This document shows, piece by piece, positions 602 through 11,035 of a stretch of DNA of 11,035 bases. The notes below the pieces were generated by a model. The model searched no databases, was not told the origin of the DNA, and saw only the letters and a list, made by a program, of their open reading frames with translations. Where the stretch lies: the UHGV virus genome UHGV-0227640. One strand, 5' to 3'. The position numbers and the translations under genes are program-made. Every line of letters starts with the position of its first letter. The stretch's first letter is position 1. The stretch comes from a virus.

Positions 602-1747
602 TTATTTTTGTTTTATGGTAAATGAAATAACATTGTCAGAATGAATCATATCTGATTCTTTAAATCGTGTAATTGCAGATAACTCATTTAAGGGAAGAGC
701 AAAGATATCAGTTAACTCAGTTACCTTTATGATTGAATGCTTATCAAGAAGTAAAAGTAACTTATTAAGTAACTCAGGCTCTTCTTTTGGGATTGCATCA
801 TCTAACGGCTCCCTACGATGGAATGGCGCTAATTGCTTAAATATATAGCTTTTCTGATTATCGCTGATTAACTTAAGGCTATGACTCCTCATGGCAATAC
901 TACCGATAGATGTAATCCAACGTAGTTTTAATCGTTCTAACGCTGATAAATTTGGACTATAAAATTCACGCCCGAAAGTGGTGGCTGGCATTAAAAAGCT
1001 GGAGGCAAAATAATCGGCCTGCAACTCCACCAGGTCGAATAATTCTTTATCATTCAGGTAGTCATCCTCCACTGCCCTATGCATAATTAAATGGCCAAGT
1101 TCATGAGCAAGACTAAATCGCATGCGAACAGCCGTCTTCGAGCTATCTAACATAATTAAAGGCCGCCCATTATGCCAGAACGAAAAGGCATCAACTTTCT
1201 CACCAGAAGGTAAATGAGAAACCACGATTCCTTTATTTTCAACAAGTCTAGTTAAATTGAGTATTGGACCATCACCTAACCCCCAAAAACGCCTTAATTG
1301 GGTGGACATATCCTCAATATCAGATAGAGACAGAACCTCAAAATCAATAATATCGAATTCAGGCAGAACCACATCTGGTAATTGAGCATATTTTAGACAT
1401 TCATCCAATATTAATGCCGCCCAACGCCCACGTGTTTTCCCTGTAACTCGAGCCTTTTTGGTCGCAGTTGAACGACTTCTAAAATGAATCGCCCCCTCCA
1501 GAGATGGAGAAGCACTGGAGGCTAAGAAAAATCGTTCTGGAAATCCTAACACCTTGGCTATTGCAGAAAGTGTATCAGCAGAGGGAGACTTCAACCCCTT
1601 CTCAAATGACGAAATAGCTTGTCTTGAAATATTGAGCACTCTGGCAAGTTCAGCCATCGTCAACCCTTTTGCCTCTCTTGCCTCCTCAAGGCGACGAGGA
1701 TTAAACGATTTATCAGTAAATGGTGTTTGTGCGATATTCATGCTCAT
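602..1747 (-). CDS. XRE-family HTH fused to ImmA/IrrE-type (COG2856 / M78-like) zinc metallopeptidase; candidate antitoxin/regulator
   Basis: 381-aa ORF. N-terminal XRE HTH (GLTMAELARVLNISRQAISSFEKGLKSP). HEXXH motif HELGHLIMH at about residue 232, as in the ImmA/IrrE family. Start ATG overlaps the upstream stop (ATGA at 1744-1747). Terminator follows. Confidence 0.85.
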   Translation of the reverse strand: MSMNIAQTPFTDKSFNPRRLEEAREAKGLTMAELARVLNISRQAISSFEKGLKSPSADTLSAIAKVLGFPERFFLASSASPSLEGAIHFRSRSTATKKARVTGKTRGRWAALILDECLKYAQLPDVVLPEFDIIDFEVLSLSDIEDMSTQLRRFWGLGDGPILNLTRLVENKGIVVSHLPSGEKVDAFSFWHNGRPLIMLDSSKTAVRMRFSLAHELGHLIMHRAVEDDYLNDKELFDLVELQADYFASSFLMPATTFGREFYSPNLSALERLKLRWITSIGSIAMRSHSLKLISDNQKSYIFKQLAPFHRREPLDDAIPKEEPELLNKLLLLLDKHSIIKVTELTDIFALPLNELSAITRFKESDMIHSDNVISFTIKQK

Positions 1748-2358
1748 GATTGCTGTGATTTAATTATTTGTTCGGTAAGAATCTTGATTTTATCTTCAAT
1801 CTCAGAATCCACATTTTCTGCTTCAACTTCTACCATCGTCATAATTGGTAAAGACTCAGTATAAAGAATCCCGTAATTATCCGAAGAAGGAACAGTTAAA
1901 TTCAGTTTGGACAAGTGCTGATTACTGCCATCATGTAACATATAAACATGTCCACCAGACGCTCTCCCATCCAGGGAGTCGGCATTTTCATCCCCAAAAT
2001 TCAATTCATAATTTTGATTAGCGTAAACAGCTCTATACAATGCCTGCTTAGGAAGTGGCGCATTACCCGATAAATGATGTGCCGTCATTTTCCAGTTGTT
2101 CGAGTGAATCGCAATGTGTTTACAATTTTTAGCAGCATTGCTACCGACTTCAAAATCCAGCCCCACACGCTTAGCCGCATTCTCAAGCAATGCATCGGCA
2201 TAAAACCAGCGCAAATATGACTGTGCTTGAGCCCAAAAAGAACCAAACTCTTTTGCCTTCATATGCGAATGAAGATAAGCCTGTGCTAACGCGATCGAAA
2301 GCTCTTTGCGGCACTCCTTGTCATATGCTTCTAACAACTGTTGAGATAAATTCTGCAT
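1744..2358 (-). CDS. Hypothetical 204-aa protein, first gene of the operon; candidate toxin/effector partner of the HTH-peptidase
   Basis: 204-aa ORF. AAGGA about 12 nt upstream of ATG at 2358. Stop overlaps start of downstream gene. No transmembrane segment or catalytic motif I recognise (His/Asn-rich centre HIAIHSNNW...HHLSGN...GGHVYMLHDGSNQH, acidic C-terminus). Visibly more A+T-rich than the phage core genes. Confidence 0.75.
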   Translation of the reverse strand: MQNLSQQLLEAYDKECRKELSIALAQAYLHSHMKAKEFGSFWAQAQSYLRWFYADALLENAAKRVGLDFEVGSNAAKNCKHIAIHSNNWKMTAHHLSGNAPLPKQALYRAVYANQNYELNFGDENADSLDGRASGGHVYMLHDGSNQHLSKLNLTVPSSDNYGILYTESLPIMTMVEVEAENVDSEIEDKIKILTEQIIKSQQS

Positions 2359-2435: not shown

Positions 2436-2456
2436 AAAAACCCGCCGAAGCGGGTT
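2436..2456 (-). terminator. Rho-independent terminator downstream of hok
   Basis: Minus-strand hairpin AACCCGC-uucg-GCGGGUU followed by UUUUU. Core 20 bp AAAAACCCGCCGARGCGGGT is nearly identical to the terminator at 571-590. Confidence 0.6.
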
Positions 2457-2524
2457 AAGCGCGGGTGCATTGAGGATGCCTGACTCATCAGAGGTGGCGA
2501 GGGATTTCTCCCCCGCCTAGTCTC

Positions 2525-2680
2525 TTACTCCTCAGGTTCGTAAGCTGTGAAGACAGCGACCTCCGTCTGGCCGGTTCGGATTCGTACCTCGCAGAGGTCT
2601 TTCCTCGTTACCAGTGCCGTCACTATGACGGTTAAACAGATGACGATCAGGGCGATTAACATCGCCTTTTGCTGCTTCAT
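2525..2680 (-). CDS. hokD: Hok/Gef-family type I toxin (small membrane-depolarising peptide), HokD/RelF-like
   Basis: Not in ORF track (51 aa). Manual translation of minus strand 2680->2525: MKQQKAMLIALIVICLTVIVTALVTRKDLCEVRIRTGQTEVAVFTAYEPEE. AAGGAG 9 nt upstream. From memory this matches HokD (RelF) of E. coli K-12. No relB/relE upstream. Confidence 0.8.
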   Translation of the reverse strand: MKQQKAMLIALIVICLTVIVTALVTRKDLCEVRIRTGQTEVAVFTAYEPEE

Positions 2681-2938
2681 AGCCTGCTTCTCCTTGACCT
2701 TTCGGTCCGTAAGAGGCTAATCTCTATGTGTCGCATAGATATGGCCTCAGATTAATGTTAAGCGTCTTGCAGGACGCGTAATGTTAACTGGGGCTTTTCT
2801 CTATCTGCCTTTTGGTGTTCATGCCTGAGACAGATAGCCTCAAGCACCCGCAGTCATTCTACTTAACTAAGATTTCCCCGCAAACCGTTTTTGTCCGGCA
2901 CAGTAAATATCCAACTAAACCAATGGCGTTCGCTGTAT
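2677..2938 (-). promoter_or_regulatory. hok mRNA leader region; expected position of mok-like coupling ORF and antisense Sok-like RNA
   Basis: 258 bp with no long ORF. A 19-codon uORF (minus 2736->2677, MRHIEISLLRTERSRRSRL) ends in an ATGA overlap with the hok start. Plus-strand TTGACC (2694-2699), 18 bp, TAATCT (2718-2723) could drive an antisense RNA. Inverted repeat CTATCTG/CAGATAG at 2801-2837. Confidence 0.3.
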
Positions 2939-3118
2939 TTACCGCCAGTATTCAATGCACATGACCGCCATGAACACCCCTAAAAAAAGGGCATTTATAT
3001 ATCCAAATATTAATATCAAAACATCAACTTTTTCCATATACCTTGCTGTGAAGATGATGGGCATACATGATACGAACAACCAGAACGCAACAAACAAAAA
3101 CTGCAATGCGTTTTTCAT
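2939..3118 (-). CDS. Small hydrophobic protein (59 aa, two predicted transmembrane helices)
   Basis: MKNALQFLFVAFWLFVSCMPIIFTARYMEKVDVLILIFGYINALFLGVFMAVMCIEYWR. Strong SD (AGGAGG) 4 nt upstream of ATG at 3118. The ORF-track N-terminal extension to 3157 lacks an SD. Embedded in a strongly A+T-rich stretch (about 2950-3290). Confidence 0.55.
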   Translation of the reverse strand: MKNALQFLFVAFWLFVSCMPIIFTARYMEKVDVLILIFGYINALFLGVFMAVMCIEYWR

Positions 3119-3288
3119 TATTCCTCCTACAATCAATGTGCAATTACATTTAAACACACCTCAATTTGGCCGGACATATAAATATCTAAACCAGAAAAAA
3201 TCACTTACATAGCGTTACAAACTCTTTAGTCTAAATATTCATCGTAAAACATTCCCCATACTTATCAGCCCGTTCTGCGCCAGGTAGC

Positions 3289-3605
3289 TCATTGCCTTAT
3301 CTGGGAATCTGTAATCAGGTTTCCGGATGCTGGTGGATTTTCGCGTTTTAGTTGTTCATAAAAGTGCACAGCTTTAACCAGTTCTTCTGATGTAACCGGG
3401 ACTGGCGGGGCAGTGAATAAGGCCTGAATTTCATAGTTCGGCCTGTCGTTACAATCCTCTTTTTTCGGTACATATTTCCAGTCACCAGACCACTACTTCC
3501 CCTGAAAGTCCGTAACGCCTTTTTTTTCACGTAGCGATATCGCCATGCCACTGTTTTTGCTTGCCCCGCCGTTTCATGCCCTTCCTGATAATTAACCTCG
3601 CTCAT
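3289..3605 (-). pseudogene. Decayed Ea22-like paralog (frameshift plus in-frame stop)
   Basis: 5' end (GTG/ATG at 3605, MSEVNYQ...) is DNA-similar to the 5' ends of the Ea22-like genes at 6470 and 7092. After about 20 codons the listed frame turns implausible (basic, low complexity), while the +1 frame carries protein-like WSGDWKYVPKKEDCNDRPNYEIQALFTAPPVPVTSEELVKAVHFYEQLKRENPPASGNLITDSQIRQ ending at 3289, preceded by TAG. Homopolymer runs (T8 at 3520-3527, T6 at 3470-3475) are likely slippage sites. Confidence 0.4.
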
Positions 3606-3778
3606 TCATCGCCCCACTCATCACAATATGCTTCGACCGGAGTTTTTCCTGCTTCATAATCATCACGCCATGCTTCAGCATCAGCAGCACTGCCACCACG
3701 TAACTCTGCATAGTCCATTAACAGTTCATGCCATGCTTCAAAACTGACGTTGTATTTAGTTGAACCAAAATCAGCCAT
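3602..3778 (-). CDS. Small acidic protein (58 aa), hypothetical
   Basis: Manual translation: MADFGSTKYNVSFEAWHELLMDYAELRGGSAADAEAWRDDYEAGKTPVEAYCDEWGDE. GAGG about 10 nt upstream. Start overlaps stop of the 3771-3953 gene and its stop overlaps the start at 3605 (ATGA). Below ORF-track cutoff. Confidence 0.5.
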   Translation of the reverse strand: MADFGSTKYNVSFEAWHELLMDYAELRGGSAADAEAWRDDYEAGKTPVEAYCDEWGDE

Positions 3779-3953
3779 TTTGCTCTTCCTCTTCGTCTTT
3801 TATTTCGTGATATGAGTAATTGCAGTAGTTAAAGAAAATATCTTTTGCTTCGTCATGTATTTCATCAGGCGTCGCATCATCATCCACTTCGAATTCATCC
3901 TCGAAATCTCCACCGGCTATTCCCGTTTCAATAATTATTTTAAACTTTCGCAT
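3771..3953 (-). CDS. Small highly acidic protein (60 aa), hypothetical; possible DNA-mimic
   Basis: ORF-track ORF MRKFKIIIETGIAGGDFEDEFEVDDDATPDEIHDEAKDIFFNYCNYSYHEIKDEEEEQNG; about 20 of 60 residues are Asp/Glu. Preceded by a structured leader (hairpins at 3961-3976 and 3991-4009). Confidence 0.55.
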   Translation of the reverse strand: MRKFKIIIETGIAGGDFEDEFEVDDDATPDEIHDEAKDIFFNYCNYSYHEIKDEEEEQNG

Positions 3954-4046
3954 TTAACTACCGCCCTTTCGGGCGGCCTCCTGATGTTCTGAGGGTGCAG
4001 AAATCCCTCCGGTTAAGGATTAAATTTTTAACAGAGCTAAATTTAA

Positions 4047-4403
4047 TTATTCAGTTCTGGATTTTGTCGCCCTGCGTATCCGCGCTTTCGCGTTACGCTC
4101 AATCTGAATTAGCTTTTCTATATTTTTTCGCCTTTCCTGTTCCTCCTGGCGCAATAGCCTTACATCATCTGCCAGTCTGGTTTCTCTTTTCGCCACAGAG
4201 AGCATCCAGTCAAATGGTTCCACAACTGCACCGCAGATTTTACAGCGGACCTGACGCTCTTTTTCGTCAACCCGGACAGAGGCGTGATGACAATATGGTC
4301 TTTCCGATGGCTCATAAAGAAAATTAACCTGATTACGAGGGTCATCCTCTTTTACCGGAAATAAAACGATATTGCTTAACTCATCCTCTGGTTTTATTTC
4401 CAT
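4047..4403 (-). CDS. Hypothetical protein (118 aa) with zinc-ribbon-like Cys/His cluster and basic coiled-coil tail
   Basis: Internal start MEIKPEDE... at 4403 with AAGGAGAGGAG upstream; the ORF-track extension to 4460 lacks an SD. PYCHH...CKICG motif. C-terminus rich in R/K/E (RRKNIEKLIQIERNAKARIRRATKSRTE). Confidence 0.6.
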   Translation of the reverse strand: MEIKPEDELSNIVLFPVKEDDPRNQVNFLYEPSERPYCHHASVRVDEKERQVRCKICGAVVEPFDWMLSVAKRETRLADDVRLLRQEEQERRKNIEKLIQIERNAKARIRRATKSRTE

Positions 4404-4524
4404 GCTCCTCTCCTTTGATGCGAATGCCAGCGGTAATTGAAGCCTGATAGCTAATTTCACTCACAGTACCGCCTCCTGAAAATTTAATGAACAATTCAAT
4501 ACGTTCTTTGGTAATAGTGGTCAT
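4381..4524 (-). pseudogene. Chimeric 47-codon ORF / deletion scar of an Ea22-like gene
   Basis: MTTITKERIELFIKFSGGGTVSEISYQASITAGIRIKGEEHGNKTRG. The first 21 bp match the 5' end of the gene at 5207 (19/21). The middle contains the TTTTCAGGAGG module. Then an Ea22-like N-terminus (VSEISYQA) is fused directly to the Ea22 C-terminal codons (AGIRIKGE; DNA CCGCTGGCATTCGCATCAAAGGAGAG identical to 5726-5751). Confidence 0.3.
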
Positions 4525-4534
4525 GTGTTACTCC

Positions 4535-4798
4535 TTAACCCGCAGTGCTTTCAACTGATGAGGGGAACAAAATCTTTTCATCAAACCCTGCATTCATATC
4601 ATGAACAGCAACACACCAATCCATCGACGAACGATTATCAAGAGCCTCCATGATTTCATCCATGCGGCGCAGGTCATACAGGTAAATGCTTTTATCGCCA
4701 ATGGTGTAAAAACCAATTTTTTTCGGTGATGGGCAGCGATCAAGAACGTCCTGTAATTCGTTCAACCATGCCCGTTCTTTTTTTGTTAAAGTTGCCAT
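4535..4798 (-). CDS. Hypothetical phage protein (87 aa)
   Basis: Internal start MATLTKKERAWLNELQDVL... at 4798 with AAGGAGAG SD; upstream stop at 4800-4802. The ORF-track extension to 4858 overlaps the upstream gene. Confidence 0.6.
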   Translation of the reverse strand: MATLTKKERAWLNELQDVLDRCPSPKKIGFYTIGDKSIYLYDLRRMDEIMEALDNRSSMDWCVAVHDMNAGFDEKILFPSSVESTAG

Positions 4799-4799
4799 A

Positions 4800-5207
4800 T
4801 CACTCTCCTTTCCCATGAAGCATAGCGGCGCGGCAGGCGTTCCATATTTCGGCAGCAATATCGCGCTCGCTATCGGTTAATTTGTACGTGGAAACATAGC
4901 CAGAGAGCATTTCTACGTTTTCCGGAGTTGCTTCTTCCGGCACTATCGGCGCTGGAGGGGCGGCAAATAGATATCCGCCAAAGTCAGGAAGCTCTCCAAT
5001 GGCCTGTACGAACTTTTGTTTGCCTACGTCAACTCCTAATGGGTAATGAGCTATAATCTTTGCCACCGGCTCTGCTTCCAGCGATACCAGTGCAATTCGT
5101 GCCAGTTCTTCCGCTTCTTCTGCTGGCAGTACAACGTTGCTACCCGGTCCGTATGTTTCGCGCCACTGCTTGATTGTCAGCAGTCGCCCTTTGGTAATAG
5201 TGATCAT
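4800..5207 (-). CDS. Hypothetical phage protein (135 aa)
   Basis: ORF-track ORF MITITKGRLLTIKQW...; ATGA overlap with the upstream gene at 5204-5207. Confidence 0.65.
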   Translation of the reverse strand: MITITKGRLLTIKQWRETYGPGSNVVLPAEEAEELARIALVSLEAEPVAKIIAHYPLGVDVGKQKFVQAIGELPDFGGYLFAAPPAPIVPEEATPENVEMLSGYVSTYKLTDSERDIAAEIWNACRAAMLHGKGE

Positions 5208-5719
5208 GCCGCGTTTCCTTCTTTCTTATTAACAATCACACCGTCATATATTTCATTAAGGTGCCCTCTCAACTCCATGCGCCTTAATGCAGATAACATG
5301 TAATCGCATTCAACCTGCTTATTCCCAGTAAATGGCTTATCGTCAGGATTACCCCAACAGCAATTACCCCTGGGCCATCCATGTACTTTCCGTACTCTTC
5401 CGTTAACAACGTGAAGTAATCCCCAGCCGGGAGGTAAATCCTCAACTGAAATAATTTCCGGCTCACTAATAAAGAATCGCCAGTCGCCCATGCCAAGTGA
5501 GGGATTTTTACGGAAACGCTTTTTTCTATCTGCCAACAAGTCAGCACGAGAACACTTCGCCTCTATCAGGCATGATGCTGAATTTCTGAATCCCATAGCA
5601 TCTGGCTGTTCTCCGGTACTGGTTACAGCAACAAAGCGGTCATGAAAGCAAACCTTGAACCCGTTGCGCTTAAGGAACTTGTACGCAATCTGACAGAGTT
5701 CGCGGTGTGTTAACGCCAT
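5204..5719 (-). CDS. Hypothetical phage protein (171 aa), possible PD-(D/E)xK-type nuclease fold
   Basis: ORF-track ORF. Pattern ...QPDAMGF...CLIEAKCSRADL resembles the D...ExK catalytic signature. Assignment tentative. Confidence 0.65.
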   Translation of the reverse strand: MALTHRELCQIAYKFLKRNGFKVCFHDRFVAVTSTGEQPDAMGFRNSASCLIEAKCSRADLLADRKKRFRKNPSLGMGDWRFFISEPEIISVEDLPPGWGLLHVVNGRVRKVHGWPRGNCCWGNPDDKPFTGNKQVECDYMLSALRRMELRGHLNEIYDGVIVNKKEGNAA

Positions 5720-5720
5720 A

Positions 5721-6470
5721 TCACTCTCCTTTGATGCGAATGCCAGCGGCGCGGATTGCAGCGATGACTTCAGAAACTTTGTATGCCATTACCGTTTGGT
5801 AATCATCGTGAAAATCTGTTCGATGAAGCATGCTGCTACGTTCCGGGAGCGATATTTCCCGAGCATCCAGTTCCTTAACGCGTTCCTCCAGTTCGTAGAC
5901 CCTGCATTGTTCTCTATCATCAATCAGATATAACCCAAGACATTCGCTTTCTACCCAACCGCCAAAATCATGATCGTAACGCTCACATGAAAACTCACCG
6001 TCACCGTCCTTTGTTGGAATGGTGTAACTATCTAATGGGCCACCATATGTCGGCACATTCCCCAATGTTGGATGCTCAATCCACATGAAAAATGCACGTC
6101 CGGTTATTGGGCAAATATCTGGCCGCCATTGGTTACGAACAGCCTTGGTTTCGGATAATTCTTCAGCGTGTTGTTTTACTTCCTCAAGCTCAACTCTCAG
6201 CTTCCCTACCGTTAGCGCAATATCCTCGTTCTCCTGGTCGCGGCGTTTGATGTATTGCTGGTTCCTTTCCCGTTCATCCAGTAGTGCCAGCACGGTTTCT
6301 GGTCCGGTCAGAAATTTGAAGGCATTGAGCGCATCAATATCCACACCGTAATCTTTAAGTTCCTGTTCACTTAACAAATCATCATCAGTTGGCAACATTA
6401 ACAGGCGTTCCATTGCTGGAATTGCACGTTCTGCTGCCTCACGCAGTGCCTGGTAATTAATTTCGCTCAC
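5721..6470 (-). CDS. Ea22-like (ead/Ea22 family) early protein, 249 aa
   Basis: GTG start at 6470 with AAGGAGG upstream. N-terminus MSEINYQALREAAERA is characteristic of lambdoid Ea22-like proteins as I recall them. Coiled-coil-like middle. C-terminus ...AGIRIKGE. Confidence 0.7.
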   Translation of the reverse strand: MSEINYQALREAAERAIPAMERLLMLPTDDDLLSEQELKDYGVDIDALNAFKFLTGPETVLALLDERERNQQYIKRRDQENEDIALTVGKLRVELEEVKQHAEELSETKAVRNQWRPDICPITGRAFFMWIEHPTLGNVPTYGGPLDSYTIPTKDGDGEFSCERYDHDFGGWVESECLGLYLIDDREQCRVYELEERVKELDAREISLPERSSMLHRTDFHDDYQTVMAYKVSEVIAAIRAAGIRIKGE

Positions 6471-6910
6471 TGGTTGCCTCCTTTGCGAAGCTCTGCGGCT
6501 AAATACTCCAACGCCATTACCGGGACGCCAACAAGCACAGTTCCTTTAAACTTCTTATGCAGGTGCTCGATAGCTGTATCCACGCCCTGCGCCCGTACTT
6601 CAGCCAGGAAAGCATCGGTGGCCGGAGTTTCAGGAATCCGTCTCCTCATCAGTTCTATTGCATGATTGAACCCGAAATCTTCAGCAAGAGATACGTCATC
6701 CATATTGTCATTGTCGTCCTCAATATCCCGTGGTTCTGGAATTGCAGACTTTATTACCGCATTCTCCGCCGCCAGCGCCGCGCACTTGGCCTCAAGAGCG
6801 GCAACCACTTCCTGATGGTCTTTGTACTTAACGTATGAGCCGGAGATGTCATCACCTTCGGTGTTTAGCCATGCGTCATTGCAATTCACTGCGTAGGTTC
6901 TGATGCTCAT
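6467..6910 (-). CDS. Hypothetical phage protein (147 aa); possibly the C-terminal part of a split Ea22-like gene
   Basis: Start MSIRTYAVNCND... at 6910 with GGGAGAG upstream; ATGA overlap with the stop of the 61-aa ORF. The ORF-track extension to 6967 is read in the frame overlapping that ORF. Confidence 0.55.
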   Translation of the reverse strand: MSIRTYAVNCNDAWLNTEGDDISGSYVKYKDHQEVVAALEAKCAALAAENAVIKSAIPEPRDIEDDNDNMDDVSLAEDFGFNHAIELMRRRIPETPATDAFLAEVRAQGVDTAIEHLHKKFKGTVLVGVPVMALEYLAAELRKGGNQ

Positions 6911-7092
6911 GTTGATGCTCTCCCGCCCCTGACAGACGCCAGGCCAGTCAATAAAGTATCCGCACAATGCCTACCCTCAGACGTGCGCGCAGGATAAATG
7001 CCGTTATGACCCGGCAAAATATATGCTACCCATTCATCTTGCGTTGCCTGTTCCGCCGCCTCGCGCAGTGCCTGATAGTCAATCTTGCTCAC
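6907..7092 (-). CDS. Ea22-like N-terminal fragment (61 aa); truncated paralog or 5' part of a frameshifted gene spanning 6467-7092
   Basis: GTG start at 7092. MSKIDYQALREAAEQATQDEW matches the N-terminus of the 249-aa Ea22-like protein. DNA at 7040-7092 is about 80% identical to 6421-6470. Confidence 0.45.
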   Translation of the reverse strand: MSKIDYQALREAAEQATQDEWVAYILPGHNGIYPARTSEGRHCADTLLTGLASVRGGRAST

Positions 7093-7573
7093 TGGTCGCC
7101 TCCTTCATAAAAATAATCCAGTGGGTCTTGTCACCCTTTCCTGTTCGTTGACCGATAACAGGCTTTCTGTCGGTCAGTGCCAATATCTGGCGAACAGGTA
7201 TTTGCGTTTCATTCCATTTAAAAATCAGAACGCTGTATGGCCGCAACACACGAAAGGCTTCTTTAAATCCCTGCCGCAAATCATCACGCCAGGTATCTTT
7301 ATTCAGCCGTCCATATTTCTTTCCCATCCAGGCGTTATCACCAACACGCTCAAGATGCGGAGGGTCGAATACAACAACCGGAAACGATGCGTCTGCAAAT
7401 GGTAATGCACGAAAATCTGCTATCAGGTCAGGGCTAATTATCAGTCTTCGTCCATCACATAATGTGTGCTCTTCCTTTCTGATATCGCTAAATATCGCCC
7501 GGTCGTCATTCTTATCGAACCAGAACATGCGGCTGCCACAGCACATATCAAGAATGGTTGCCGGTGCACTCAC
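7079..7573 (-). CDS. Small SAM-dependent DNA methyltransferase (orphan; N6-adenine or N4-cytosine type)
   Basis: 164-aa ORF. Motif I-like ILDMCCGSRMFWFD near the N-terminus and motif IV-like VVVFDPPH. GTG start overlapping the upstream stop (GTGA). No adjacent restriction enzyme gene. Confidence 0.6.
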   Translation of the reverse strand: MSAPATILDMCCGSRMFWFDKNDDRAIFSDIRKEEHTLCDGRRLIISPDLIADFRALPFADASFPVVVFDPPHLERVGDNAWMGKKYGRLNKDTWRDDLRQGFKEAFRVLRPYSVLIFKWNETQIPVRQILALTDRKPVIGQRTGKGDKTHWIIFMKEATSEQD

Positions 7574-7992
7574 TGCGCTACCTCCTGAAAATTACCCTGA
7601 TAAAACGACAATATGCGCTGCATAACTTCGCTCTTCCGGCACTCGCGACAGATTATGTTCTGACGCCTGTCGTAGCGGCGTATTTCGCCGTCTGGTAATA
7701 GCCAGATAAGGTCCGGATCAACCACAGATGGTTTCTTCAGCTTTGCCCTTGAGAGTTTTTTGCGGGCGTTTTGCCAGTCCTTGCGCGCCTGCTCAGACGG
7801 GAATACTCCGTAACCGGAATTGTAAACATCACCACTGGCGGCCAGCTCCATGCATAAACGACCGACAGACGCATGACTGACACCAATTTCATCCGATAAC
7901 TGCCGAATCGTGCCTCGTCCGTTAAGGCGTACGAATTCCACGATCAGCCCTTTAATTTTTTCCCGCTCTTCTTGTGTAAAAACTTTTGCCAC
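7570..7992 (-). CDS. HTH (winged-helix-like) DNA-binding protein, 140 aa
   Basis: ORF-track ORF. GTG start with GGAGG 5 nt upstream. HTH-like segment GTIRQLSDEIGVSHASVGRLCMELA. Confidence 0.6.
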   Translation of the reverse strand: MAKVFTQEEREKIKGLIVEFVRLNGRGTIRQLSDEIGVSHASVGRLCMELAASGDVYNSGYGVFPSEQARKDWQNARKKLSRAKLKKPSVVDPDLIWLLPDGEIRRYDRRQNIICRECRKSEVMQRILSFYQGNFQEVAQ

Positions 7993-8032
7993 AAGCCCTC
8001 CTGAAAATTACCTCATGACCAGAAATTAACAC

Positions 8033-8995
8033 TTACCCCCTGAAGCCCGGCGGAATTTCAGTGTCCGGTTCAGAAATGTGATTCACGCAACGCTGCGCAG
8101 GCGAACGCCCCAGGCGGATAACCAGTTCATCCCATTTTTCCCGGAGTTTTGCCGGACTCATGATGTTTTTTACCCAGAACGAATCCCGCTGGAGACGCCC
8201 AAACATTTCACAAATTTGTCTGTGAGTTCTGCCATCCAGCATCCGCATTGTGCGAACGTCATTGGCCCATGCTGTCCAGTTGGGTTCTTTCGGTCTAGTG
8301 ATCTCGCCATCATAGCTGGCCGCCTGCTCGTAAAGACTCACGATTCGTCCCCAGATCCACTGTGCGCACACCAAATCTTCCTGACTTCCCCACTGGCGTT
8401 TTTTCGCACTGAACACAACCGCGTCAGGGTGTCGGGTTAAAAAATCCTGTTCAGCCGTCTGCGGGTCCGGTTGCGAAGCGTCCGGACAAGAAGATCTTTT
8501 ATCTGACGGATCAGGTTTTAATACTGACGGATCGGGGTCAATCATCGGCCCCCTAATCGGCAGTTTTTTATCAACAGTTGATCCATCAAAATTTGACGGG
8601 TCAACCGTTGAGGGGTCAATATTTGACGGGTCAACTGTTAACGGGTCATTTTTTGCCGGGCTAATTTTTCTTTTCGGTTTATATGACTCACGCGCCGCCG
8701 CCGCAGCTGCTTCGAGTTTTTCCACATTAAGCCGATAGATATTGCTTACATTACGCCCACCGACCTTACGCTCTTCCTTCGTCAGCCAGCCCTCTTTCGC
8801 CAGTTCTGCAATAGCCGATTTCACTGTGGATTCACTTCTTGCACCGATCTGACGCCGGATAGTTTCAATGGCAGGCCATGACACGCCCTCGTCATTGCTG
8901 TAGTCTGCAAGACGGGCCATAACCGCCACCCTGGATAAGATCATGCCGGTGAAGGCGCACCCTTCCCAGACAAGACCATGAAGCTTGCTGCTCAT
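8033..8995 (-). CDS. Phage replication initiator (lambda O-like): N-terminal winged-helix DNA-binding domain, repetitive linker, C-terminal domain
   Basis: N-terminus ...MARLADYSNDEGVSWPAIETIRRQIGARSESTVKSAIAELAKEGWLTKEER. Linker with repeats DPLTVDPSNIDPSTVDPSNFDGSTVD encoded by the DNA iterons. ATG at 8995 with a G-rich SD preferred over GTG at 9010. Confidence 0.75.
   Translation of the reverse strand: MSSKLHGLVWEGCAFTGMILSRVAVMARLADYSNDEGVSWPAIETIRRQIGARSESTVKSAIAELAKEGWLTKEERKVGGRNVSNIYRLNVEKLEAAAAAARESYKPKRKISPAKNDPLTVDPSNIDPSTVDPSNFDGSTVDKKLPIRGPMIDPDPSVLKPDPSDKRSSCPDASQPDPQTAEQDFLTRHPDAVVFSAKKRQWGSQEDLVCAQWIWGRIVSLYEQAASYDGEITRPKEPNWTAWANDVRTMRMLDGRTHRQICEMFGRLQRDSFWVKNIMSPAKLREKWDELVIRLGRSPAQRCVNHISEPDTEIPPGFRG
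8500..8690. repeat. Iteron array plus A+T-rich segment: putative phage origin of replication inside the initiator gene
   Basis: About six copies of TGACGG(G/A)TCA and variants at 8504, 8525, 8594, 8609, 8624 and 8638, some spaced 15 bp apart, followed by the A+T-rich stretch 8649-8685 (TTTTTTGCCGGGCTAATTTTTCTTTTCGGTTTATATG). Confidence 0.55.
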
Positions 8996-9017
8996 AAAAC
9001 CCCCGAACACCGTGCTT

Positions 9018-9443
9018 TTAGTGCATCACCACAGCATTCCCTGCCGGGCCGCCGCGATTCATCTGGTCATACAAAACAACCGCTGACGCAACAAAATCAT
9101 CGACATCCTTCACCAGCCGATCCCTCCGTTCGACGATCTCACGGTAATATTCAGAACTGTGGCTGCGCATACGGGCCACCAGCAAAGGCGGCATCGCCTT
9201 TTCGATCGCCGGTAACAGAGCCTGCATTTTTTCAACAGCATCAGGGGTGTCTTTATCCAGCCAACGGAAAATTTTCTGGGTATTACGGGCCAGGGCTTCC
9301 GGATGGCTGTCGTCATACAGTTCCGGGAACGTCATTCCCAGCTCGAAATACGCTTTGGTAATTTTCGCAGCCGGCACTTTTTCGCCGTCCGGATGCGCCC
9401 AGACATTCATCGCCATGCGGATGTGTTCATGCTTGATTTTCAT
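9018..9443 (-). CDS. YdaT-like (CII-like) regulatory protein, 141 aa
   Basis: ORF-track ORF MKIKHEHIRMAMNVWAHPDGEK.... The position (between the Cro-like and replication genes) and the N-terminus resemble E. coli Rac YdaT as I recall it. Confidence 0.6.
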   Translation of the reverse strand: MKIKHEHIRMAMNVWAHPDGEKVPAAKITKAYFELGMTFPELYDDSHPEALARNTQKIFRWLDKDTPDAVEKMQALLPAIEKAMPPLLVARMRSHSSEYYREIVERRDRLVKDVDDFVASAVVLYDQMNRGGPAGNAVVMH

Positions 9444-9708
9444 GAATCAAGCTCCTAGAAAGTGGTTGTGTTAACGTTTTGGTATCTTCCAGCTCGGGCC
9501 AAATATTCATCCAATCAAAAGGCCTTAGTTGCTGACGTGTAACTTCACCATTACTGGCTCGCTCAATAAGGACACATAACGATGCCCCTAACACTTGACC
9601 TTTACTCAATGCCTTTCTTAGATAACCGATGCTGGTACCACACTCGCATGCAAACATACGCTGTTCATCTGACGAAAGAGAATTGAGAAATATTCTTAAT
9701 TCTTCCAT
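9427..9708 (-). CDS. Cro-like / YdaS-like HTH regulator, 93 aa
   Basis: ORF-track ORF. AAGGAG 6 nt upstream of ATG at 9708. HTH-like segment CECGTSIGYLRKALSKGQVLGASLCVLIERAS. Divergent from the repressor gene. Confidence 0.7.
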   Translation of the reverse strand: MEELRIFLNSLSSDEQRMFACECGTSIGYLRKALSKGQVLGASLCVLIERASNGEVTRQQLRPFDWMNIWPELEDTKTLTQPLSRSLIHENQA

Positions 9709-9732
9709 AGCTACTCCTTAGTAAACACAGCA

Positions 9733-9802
9733 AAGAATACCCACAGGTAAACAAAAGTCAATACCCACAGGTTGTTTACCTTGCGGTAATCGCATCTATT
9801 AT
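9733..9802. promoter_or_regulatory. Immunity switch: divergent promoters with operator-like sites
   Basis: Sites TACCCACAGGTA (9738-9749) and TACCCACAGGTT (9762-9773), 24 bp centre to centre. Inverted repeat AGGTAAACAA / TTGTTTACCT (9746-9755 / 9771-9780). Leftward promoter TTGACT (9761-9756), 16 bp, TATTCT. Rightward TTTACC (9775-9780), 16 bp, TATTAT (9797-9802), placing the transcript start at or next to the ATG at 9809 (leaderless, no SD). Confidence 0.5.
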
Positions 9803-9808
9803 TTACCT

Positions 9809-10228
9809 ATGGACAAATATGAATTTAGACGACAGCAACTCATCAAAATTCGTGATGAGAAATGCGATGGTAAAGCGGTTAACGTGGCCAGAAAGATCGG
9901 GCGCGAGCCTTCTTATGTATCAAGAATGTTGTACCCAGAGGGGAAAAAGGGAAAAAAACGGATCGCTGATGATATGGTGGAGATTATCGAAGAGTCCTTT
10001 GGGTTACCCCGGGGATGGATGGATGGTATCGTTTCATCATCAACGAACACAGCCTCCAGTTATGAAACAAGGGTTCTAACGCCACGACAACGTATTTTTT
10101 TAGATCTCTTAGACGAACTGCCAGAAAGTGAAGCGGATAAATTATTAAAAACTCTTGAAGAGAAAAAACAGTATTACAATATGATCTACGAAGAAATCCG
10201 TAAAAAGAAAGCACAAAACGCATCATAG
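9809..10228 (+). CDS. Prophage repressor-like HTH protein (positional equivalent of CI/DicA/RacR), 139 aa
   Basis: ORF-track ORF. HTH-like segment AVNVARKIGREPSYVSRMLYP. C-terminal ...LDELPESEADKLLKTL resembles the DicA C-terminal region as I recall it. No S24 peptidase domain. Confidence 0.7.
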   Translation: MDKYEFRRQQLIKIRDEKCDGKAVNVARKIGREPSYVSRMLYPEGKKGKKRIADDMVEIIEESFGLPRGWMDGIVSSSTNTASSYETRVLTPRQRIFLDLLDELPESEADKLLKTLEEKKQYYNMIYEEIRKKKAQNAS

Positions 10229-10270
10229 CTCACCAAACAACTAGTCACCAGTTAAGACACCGCAAAAATT

Positions 10271-10307
10271 TACCCATGGGTATTTACTTTTTAAATACCT
10301 ATGGGTA
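10271..10307. promoter_or_regulatory. Second pair of operator-like sites upstream of the ydfA-like operon
   Basis: Perfect palindrome TACCCATGGGTA (10271-10282) and TACCTATGGGTA (10296-10307), 25 bp centre to centre, same consensus as the sites at 9738-9773. Confidence 0.4.
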
Positions 10308-10493
10308 TCCTTCTTTTCATACCAACCCACCCCGCCCCACAGAACGCCAGGCAATACTTCGAGTTACCCGGCAGTGGTCAGGGGTTAAGTAGCCAGCCCG
10401 AGGCGTATGAACATGACGGCGGGAACACTTTATATAACAGCGCAGCAGTTTTTTAGTTCCGCTACCCCGGCGTTAAGGGGAAATGAGGTCAGC

Positions 10494-10649
10494 ATGGATA
10501 CTATCGATCTTGGCAACAGCGAATCTCTGGTATGTGGCGTGTTCCCCAACCAGGACGGTACGTTCACCGCAATGACGTATACCAAAAGCAAAACGTTTAA
10601 AACCGAAAATGGTGCCCGTCGCTGGCTGGAAAGAAACTCAGGTGAGTGA
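10494..10649 (+). CDS. ydfA: YdfA/YdaF-family (DUF1391) small protein, 51 aa
   Basis: Internal start MDTIDLGNSESLVCGVFPNQDGTFTAMTYTKSKTFKTENGARRWLERNSGE with GAGG 6 nt upstream. Matches YdfA of the K-12 dicB operon from memory. The ORF-track extension from 10407 lacks an SD. Confidence 0.6.
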   Translation: MDTIDLGNSESLVCGVFPNQDGTFTAMTYTKSKTFKTENGARRWLERNSGE

Positions 10650-10650
10650 T

Positions 10651-10779
10651 ATGGATTTTGACACAATCATGGAAAAGGCTTACGAAGAATACTTCGAAGG
10701 CCTTGCCGAAGGCGAAGAAGCTCACAGCTTCAACGAATTTAAACAGGTGCTTTCCAGTTCGGCAAAATCTAACGGCTGA
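10651..10779 (+). CDS. ydfB: YdfB-like small protein, 42 aa
   Basis: Manual translation MDFDTIMEKAYEEYFEGLAEGEEAHSFNEFKQVLSSSAKSNG. Start is 1 nt after the upstream TGA. Size and position match ydfB. Below ORF-track cutoff. Confidence 0.5.
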   Translation: MDFDTIMEKAYEEYFEGLAEGEEAHSFNEFKQVLSSSAKSNG

Positions 10780-10808
10780 TAAGCGAAACAGCACCGCGAG
10801 GAATCAGT

Positions 10809-11027
10809 ATGCAGAAACGAGAACCCGTCATCATCGCGCCAGACTATACCGATGATGAACTTTATGAGTGGATGCGCCAGAAAATTAATGCAGCGCAGGA
10901 TCTGAAATGGGCCAATGAAGCCAGGACTAAGCAGGCTGAAAATCTGTCCGCTCTGGAGCAGGATATCACCAGGCTGGAAAAAGCAGCGGCATTAAGCATT
11001 GCCAGAATGGTTACATACCCACGTTAA
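10809..11027 (+). CDS. ydfC: YdfC-like protein, 72 aa
   Basis: ORF-track ORF MQKREPVIIAPDYTDDELYEWMRQKINAAQDLKW.... GAGGAA SD. Size and position match ydfC of the dicB operon from memory. Confidence 0.55.
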   Translation: MQKREPVIIAPDYTDDELYEWMRQKINAAQDLKWANEARTKQAENLSALEQDITRLEKAAALSIARMVTYPR

Positions 11028-11035
11028 TAGCTAAC

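Follow-up and report, generated by a model that had tools for sequence, protein, structure and literature searches.

A multiply lesioned accessory gene of lambdoid prophages with a length-polymorphic homopolymer

In an 11,035-nucleotide stretch of a virus genome (UHGV-0227640; the window hereafter), positions 3239-3605 of the minus strand very probably hold a small accessory gene of lambdoid prophages that has been irreversibly inactivated, with slippage in its homopolymer acting as neutral drift after the death of the gene. The locus lies in the early-right operon, between the replication genes and hokD. A preliminary description, made from the letters of the window, had called this a decayed gene, and the comparison with other genomes bears this out. 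Strain Ecol_316 is 100% identical across our 651-bp query (positions 2437-11035 of the window are 99.93% identical to that chromosome), and its RefSeq PGAP annotation marks the identical locus, BE963_RS29450 (NZ_CP018957.1 3483216-3483532), as a pseudogene, 'hypothetical protein; frameshifted; internal stop', while intact homologues form a single open reading frame (ORF). The pseudogene is thus already known through the RefSeq flag, and it is widespread and carries multiple lesions. Among complete E. coli genomes the 651-bp query matched 2,234 records, 587 of them at ≥99% identity.

Dead and live alleles of the gene are both common. The 171-aa forms of the live gene are abundant, with 569 members in the cluster of the sequence used here for comparison and the exact sequence on at least 1000 contigs; the exact 85-aa product of the dead allele is likewise found on at least 1000 contigs. 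A successful prophage carrying the decayed allele along as a hitch-hiker could account for its very wide spread, although this spread also leaves a small probability to a use of the truncated product. The biological weight of these observations is small, and their use lies in annotation hygiene: an 85-aa 'hypothetical protein' (e.g. UniRef A0A3W4Z061_ECOLX), its 36-, 40- and 70-aa variants and a 152-aa Shigella protein are all artefacts of a single decaying gene.

Layout of the remnant and its lesions

With 367 nt, the remnant falls short of the 516 nt of the intact homologue (171 aa); it passes through three successive frames (Table 1). Its ATG (3605-3603) overlaps the stop codon of an upstream 58-aa gene (ATGA, 3605-3602), and the gene reads MSEVNYQ from position 3605 on the minus strand. 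The homologous frame is left after codon 28, at the A8 run, which places the break at codon 28/29 and not after the roughly 20 codons first described. Homologous coding picks up directly past the run in the -1 (equivalently +2) frame, with GVTDFQGK, a TAG, WSGDWKYVPKKEDCNDRPNYEIQALF and further residues up to a TGA at 3289-3291; past the TAG this frame reads WSGDWKYVPKKEDCNDRPNYEIQALFTAPPVPVTSEELVKAVHFYEQLKRENPPASGNLITDSQIRQ in full before it reaches that stop. The coding frame had been thought to resume in +1 after the TAG, but it resumes before the TAG and, followed in the direction of translation, in -1. The window's ORF listing holds no ORF of ≥30 aa in the resumed frame.

Table 1 Features of the pseudogene remnant, with positions counted from the first letter of the window
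Feature	Position	Strand	Remarks
Full pseudogene remnant	3239..3605	-	Three successive frames; DNA alignment to strain S8 (intact allele) and to other alleles
Segment 1, start frame, codons 1-28, MSEVNYQEGHETAGQAKTVAWRYRYVKK	3522..3605	-	Homologous coding
A8 homopolymer (T8 on the + strand), first frame break	3520..3527	-	+2 relative to A6 of intact alleles
In-frame TAG, ninth codon past A8 in the homologous -1 frame	3493..3495	-	Translation and alignments
Segment 2, -1 frame, GVTDFQGK-stop-WSGDWKYVPKKEDCNDRPNYEIQALFTAPPVPVTSEELVKAVHFYEQLKRENPPAS	3323..3519	-	Translation
A6 run (T6 on the + strand) inside segment 2	3460..3465	-	KK here, TK in other alleles; no lesion
Single remaining AATCCRCCAG direct-repeat copy	3330..3339	-	Marks the 90-bp (30-codon) in-frame deletion, junction 3331/3332
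Junction of the 61-bp out-of-frame deletion, second frame break	3322..3323	-	Alignments and coordinate mapping
Segment 3, third frame, KPDYRFPDKAMSYLAQNGLISMGNVLR-stop, last 27 codons, C-terminal module	3239..3322	-	Ends at the ancestral TGA, 3239-3241
Mechanical 85-aa ORF	3348..3605	-	First 28 residues real, other 57 out-of-frame junk

The A8 run (T8 on the plus strand) is the only homopolymer of ≥8 nt in the window, which contains 20 runs of ≥6 nt. Both the T8 and a T6 run had been placed at the transition between frames. This holds for the T8, which is the break itself, but not for the T6, which lies inside the resumed frame and has the same length in 47 of the 48 sampled alleles of this lineage (the remaining one could not be scored).

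The nature of the lesions emerges from an uninterrupted 516-nt gene that occupies the same slot in strain S8 and encodes the 171-aa protein WP_001289994.1. This gene follows a DUF7167 gene and a 58-aa gene, and it is collinear with the whole remnant. Compared with it, the window copy has A8 in place of A6 and TAG in place of CCG, and it lacks 90 bp and 61 bp. The intact allele carries two copies of AATCCRCCAG exactly 90 bp apart, and the 90-bp in-frame deletion, a further lesion, would have arisen between these 10-bp direct repeats. As to the 61-bp deletion, the KL53 allele retains 57 of the 61 deleted bases, with extra stop codons. The interval originally assigned to the gene, 3289-3605, ends at the TGA at 3289-3291; the remnant, however, reaches 3239, and the two deletions had been missed. 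The ends of BE963_RS29450 coincide with the same 3289-3605, such that PGAP also stops at the TGA at 3289 whereas the homologous remnant goes on to 3239.

By this comparison at least three independent lesions would have disabled the gene: the change from A6 to A8 (+2), the TAG 24 nt further on and the 61-bp deletion. The number may, however, be two (A8 and TAG) and not three, and the deletions alone need not have killed the gene, because both occur in alleles that are open. The 90-bp deletion is also present in an open 141-aa ORF (P0035), and an open 104-aa ORF from IMG/VR contigs, with A6 and with CTG in place of the TAG, combines the two deletions. When the window copy is repaired, its translation of 104 codons is identical to this 104-aa open allele at 96 of 104 positions. 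The 104-aa protein probably served as the PGAP reference, which would explain why the PGAP feature ends at 3289.

Ribosomes probably still initiate at the ATG, because the ATGA overlap couples its translation to that of the upstream gene, and would then produce a peptide of 85 aa, out of frame over its last 57 residues. Past the A8 run the 85-aa ORF encodes a basic sequence with no protein-family match, and its match to phrog_660 is confined to residues 2-31.

Intact relatives and the Ea22 question

The intact 171-aa homologue matches phrog_660, a family of 'unknown function', with an E-value of 4e-75. The window remnant is of the phrog_660 type by collinear alignment, and its repaired translation also aligns; an uninterrupted phrog_660-type ORF was not found in the window copy, which is broken by the +2 frameshift, the TAG and the 61-bp deletion. 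At the position of the TAG, other alleles have CCG, CAG, ATG, CTG or TGG.

TGG is the codon of an allele from Shigella dysenteriae that is identical to the window copy around this position. On S. dysenteriae chromosomes L005-L008 (gene 1501-1959), A8 is the sole lesion, the codon is TGG and there are no deletions. The annotation of this allele, a 152-aa 'bacteriophage protein', begins at an internal ATG of the -1 frame, with IS elements in the vicinity. A separate rearrangement is seen in E. coli MEI1-1023 (H25) and 190 (H84), where a 'DUF977 family protein' annotation overlies the pseudogene match, which points to a possible deletion of the intervening genes that fused the DUF977 gene to the remnant.

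The gene had been described as a third, decayed paralog of the Ea22-like genes in the window. Lambda Ea22 is a pro-lysogenic protein (PMC7093339, PMC10834534) for which a central coiled coil and tetramerisation have been described (PMC10834534). Membership in the Ead_Ea22 family was judged by the Pfam PF13935 gathering score of 27 bits. Three ORFs of the window exceed it (5721-6470, 102.7 bits, 3e-29; 6907-7092, 54 bits, 4e-14; 6467-6967, 42.8 bits, 1e-10), whereas the intact 171-aa homologue of the pseudogene has no Pfam match to Ead_Ea22 even at E ≤ 1. Scans of the intact protein with NCBIfam and PADLOC likewise gave no match. We therefore rejected family membership, as the Pfam and NCBIfam scans return no Ead_Ea22 match in the intact homologue and the similarity is N-terminal only.

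The resemblance at the start is nonetheless real, though limited to the first 7 codons. The genes share MSE-I/V-N/D-YQ, corresponding to ~22 nt (RTGAGCRAGRTTRAYTAYCAGG), and diverge from there on in the DNA alignment; BLASTP against the neighbouring Ea22-like protein aligned 29 residues, 13 of them identical. In strain 2013C_3964 an Ea22-like gene occupies the same slot, and homology breaks off directly after codon 7. The shared start is thus a mosaic junction between prophage modules, which is insufficient for family membership and gives no evidence of paralogy.

The Ea22 idea still has a grain of truth, through modules common to prophage proteins. By exhaustive HMMER search, the 171-aa protein consists of approximately three modules that are found separately in many prophage proteins, and among 150 of its distant relatives 12 carry Ead_Ea22 and 4 carry DUF551. 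The likeness to Ead/Ea22-like proteins therefore consists of the start motif, the same slot in another strain and these 12 of 150 relatives. Other candidate assignments of the intact protein were discarded: a Pfam match to AphA_like was below threshold (E = 0.24), and a sequence search of the PDB returned designed proteins together with a weak helicase-loader hit (E = 0.13), which we judged to be chance. AlphaFold2, given a 33-sequence alignment, modelled the intact homologue poorly (pLDDT 52.6, pTM 0.30), at a quality too low for a fold search.

Homopolymer length among alleles and alternative explanations

Complete E. coli genomes were searched for exact matches to 77-79-mers that cover both the run and the TAG. 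The combination of A6 with TAG was the commonest state (475 records), A8 with TAG was found in 339 records, and A7 with TAG was the rarest (61 records). A query combining A8 with TGG had no match in these genomes (no shared 28-nt exact word), from which such an allele is accordingly absent. With A6 and TGG, no exact full-length match came out on top in the same genomes; the rows listed were TAG alleles at 98.7% identity, and two records in the ≥99% band, ranked below these rows, are probably partial alignments.

A gapped pattern scan of IMG/VR gave a complementary view, for which we scored the first 120 matches listed (not a random sample). At 72 of these loci the codon at the TAG position was CCG, CAG, ATG or CTG, and all 72 runs were A6, with neither A7 nor A8; the ORF lengths in this group were mostly 171 or 119 aa among the matches listed. 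The TAG/TGG lineage made up the other 48 loci, with A6 at 22, A7 at 6 and A8 at 20. Runs of A7 or A8 therefore account for 26/48 loci inside the lineage versus 0/72 outside it among the first 120 matches listed (Fisher p = 2e-13, uncorrected for relatedness). Within the same 120 matches, 3 of the 20 A8 alleles of the lineage had TGG and no deletions, and all alleles reading as 171-aa ORFs (35/35 among the matches listed) had A6. Near-identical alleles differ in run length, and the A6, A7 and A8 alleles of the lineage yield ORFs of 36, 40 and 85 aa, respectively. Because A6-TAG, A8-TAG and A8-TGG all exist and the two sites are 24 nt apart, change must have recurred at one site at least; the homopolymer is the obvious candidate for the site that changed repeatedly.

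These distributions qualify the earlier proposal of a pseudogene produced by slippage. The run is polymorphic (A6/A7/A8), which is a signature of slippage, but slippage would not be the sole cause of inactivation, given the TAG, the 61-bp deletion and the predominance of A6 with TAG. Run length would instead change by replication slippage as neutral drift in a gene that was already dead, and the confinement of run-length variation to the TAG/TGG lineage fits such drift and not phase variation. In the first 120 matches listed, the homopolymer keeps its in-frame length where the codon is sense and drifts once the gene is dead; run-length polymorphism alone is therefore no sign of phase variation.

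A phase-variable contingency gene, in which slipped-strand mispairing would toggle expression on and off through the length of the A-run, had been offered as one reading of the locus. The run-length polymorphism among near-identical alleles is what such loci show between strains, and the T8 is also the longest homopolymer in the window. Here, however, the polymorphism is found only in dead or frameshifted alleles, and the gene is open at none of the run lengths: even the in-frame length, A6, still meets the TAG nine codons on and ends as a 36-aa ORF, this combination is the commonest state of all, and the window copy has the 61-bp deletion in addition. Alleles outside the lineage uniformly keep A6 in the IMG/VR matches listed, and a run of 8 nt is short for an efficient contingency locus. 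We consider phase variation highly improbable. Much the same applies to programmed -1 ribosomal frameshifting or transcriptional slippage at A8, the other mechanism suggested at the outset, by which the protein would be restored. The sequence GTG AAA AAA AAG does contain, in the correct phase, the same heptamer as the dnaX site (A_AAA_AAG), and the frame of the homologues lies exactly at -1; A-AAA-AAG is slippery in E. coli (PMC1851650, PMC5009743). In contrast to dnaX, the site lacks a stem-loop and any visible element resembling a Shine-Dalgarno sequence upstream, and the RNA around and after the run folds no more stably than its shuffled versions (MFE -19.5 versus a shuffle mean of -19.8 kcal/mol, z = 0.10), so that no stimulatory structure is apparent. 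The few ribosomes that might slip -1 on the heptamer would halt at the TAG, which closes this frame after 9 codons and leaves a product of 37 residues, and a second frame break would follow at 3322/3323. Full-length open homologues have A6, lack the heptamer and need no shift. A programmed shift in the window copy accordingly has a very low probability in our estimation. A weaker form of the idea, in which the lineage passed through a stage with low-level full-length protein from -1 ribosomal or transcriptional slippage, or in which Shigella is still at that stage, is very unlikely but draws on the Shigella allele with TGG, where A8 is the sole lesion and A_AAA_AAG is in phase. If it were true, the gene would be an adventitious one in which the frameshift is tolerated, and the window allele would be a later fossil, closed by the TAG and the deletion.

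Three further explanations were considered: two genes, a sequencing or assembly error, and a newly acquired function. A genuine split gene, with two independently expressed and conserved ORFs, might be read from the presence of the layout in hundreds of E. coli genomes and from annotations that call proteins from its parts (P0030, P0121). The copies with this layout nevertheless represent one allele lineage at ~99% identity and not independent conservation, and intact relatives are single ORFs. Past the TAG, no ATG, GTG or TTG gives more than 26 codons (the first in-frame start leaves 26), and the ATG used for the 152-aa Shigella call leaves just 17 codons in the window copy. The split copies among the orthologues are hence the same dead allele, with a downstream part that has no usable start, and we regard two expressed genes as exceedingly improbable. 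Nor does a homopolymer error in sequencing or assembly offer much: such runs are error-prone in long-read assemblies, and some of the 61 A7 records, the rarest state, could be errors, but A8 with TAG is exact in 339 complete genomes, and an error of this type would explain neither the TAG nor the deletions. Because at least 1000 contigs of varied origin carry the exact 85-aa product, A8 itself is almost certainly not a sequencing error. Finally, the 85-aa ORF, or its N-terminal 28-37 residues, could have gained a function of its own, considering how widespread the ORF is and that its start codon is coupled. Against this, residues 29-85 have no family match, and the tails differ widely between A6, A7 and A8 alleles, so that none is conserved in the lineage; we attach scarcely any probability to a function gained in this way.

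Other features of the window

Several further features of the window surfaced during the analysis. A pair of overlapping genes at 602-2358 (minus strand) is similar to the PADLOC anti-phage defence system RmrT/RmrA. A 381-aa protein with HTH_3 and Peptidase_M78 (IrrE-like) domains matches RmrA at 5.5e-102, and the 204-aa protein encoded upstream of this RmrA-like gene matches RmrT at 7.5e-10. The pair lies just beyond hokD, within positions 1-2436, where the match to Ecol_316 ends; Ecol_316 has a hypothetical gene, DUF968 and RusA in place of this part. By its sequence context, the pair looks like defence cargo swapped into a prophage hot-spot.

Two overlapping ORFs at 6467-7092 on the minus strand split a single Ead_Ea22 profile between them, with the ORF at 6907-7092 (61 aa) covering profile positions 1-45 and the ORF at 6467-6967 covering 38-138. 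A second Ea22-like gene, split or frameshifted, may lie here; in the PGAP annotation the two ORFs are separate Ea22-like proteins without a pseudogene flag. In the near-identical sequence of Ecol_316, PGAP flags two pseudogenes at 5541-5719 and 5073-5207 on the minus strand ('frameshifted' and 'incomplete, missing C-terminus'), and the ORF listing of the window has open ORFs of 171 aa (5204-5719) and 135 aa (4800-5207) there. Several early-operon genes of this prophage may thus be decayed or mosaic.

Between the pseudogene and hokD, an unannotated ORF of 59 aa rich in hydrophobic residues (MKNALQFLFVAFWLFVSCMPIIFTARYMEKVDVLILIFGYINALFLGVFMAVMCIEYWR) lies at 2942-3118 on the minus strand. It had no match in Pfam, PHROG or PADLOC and is not called by PGAP in the identical sequence of Ecol_316; an AGGAGG is located 4 nt upstream of its ATG.
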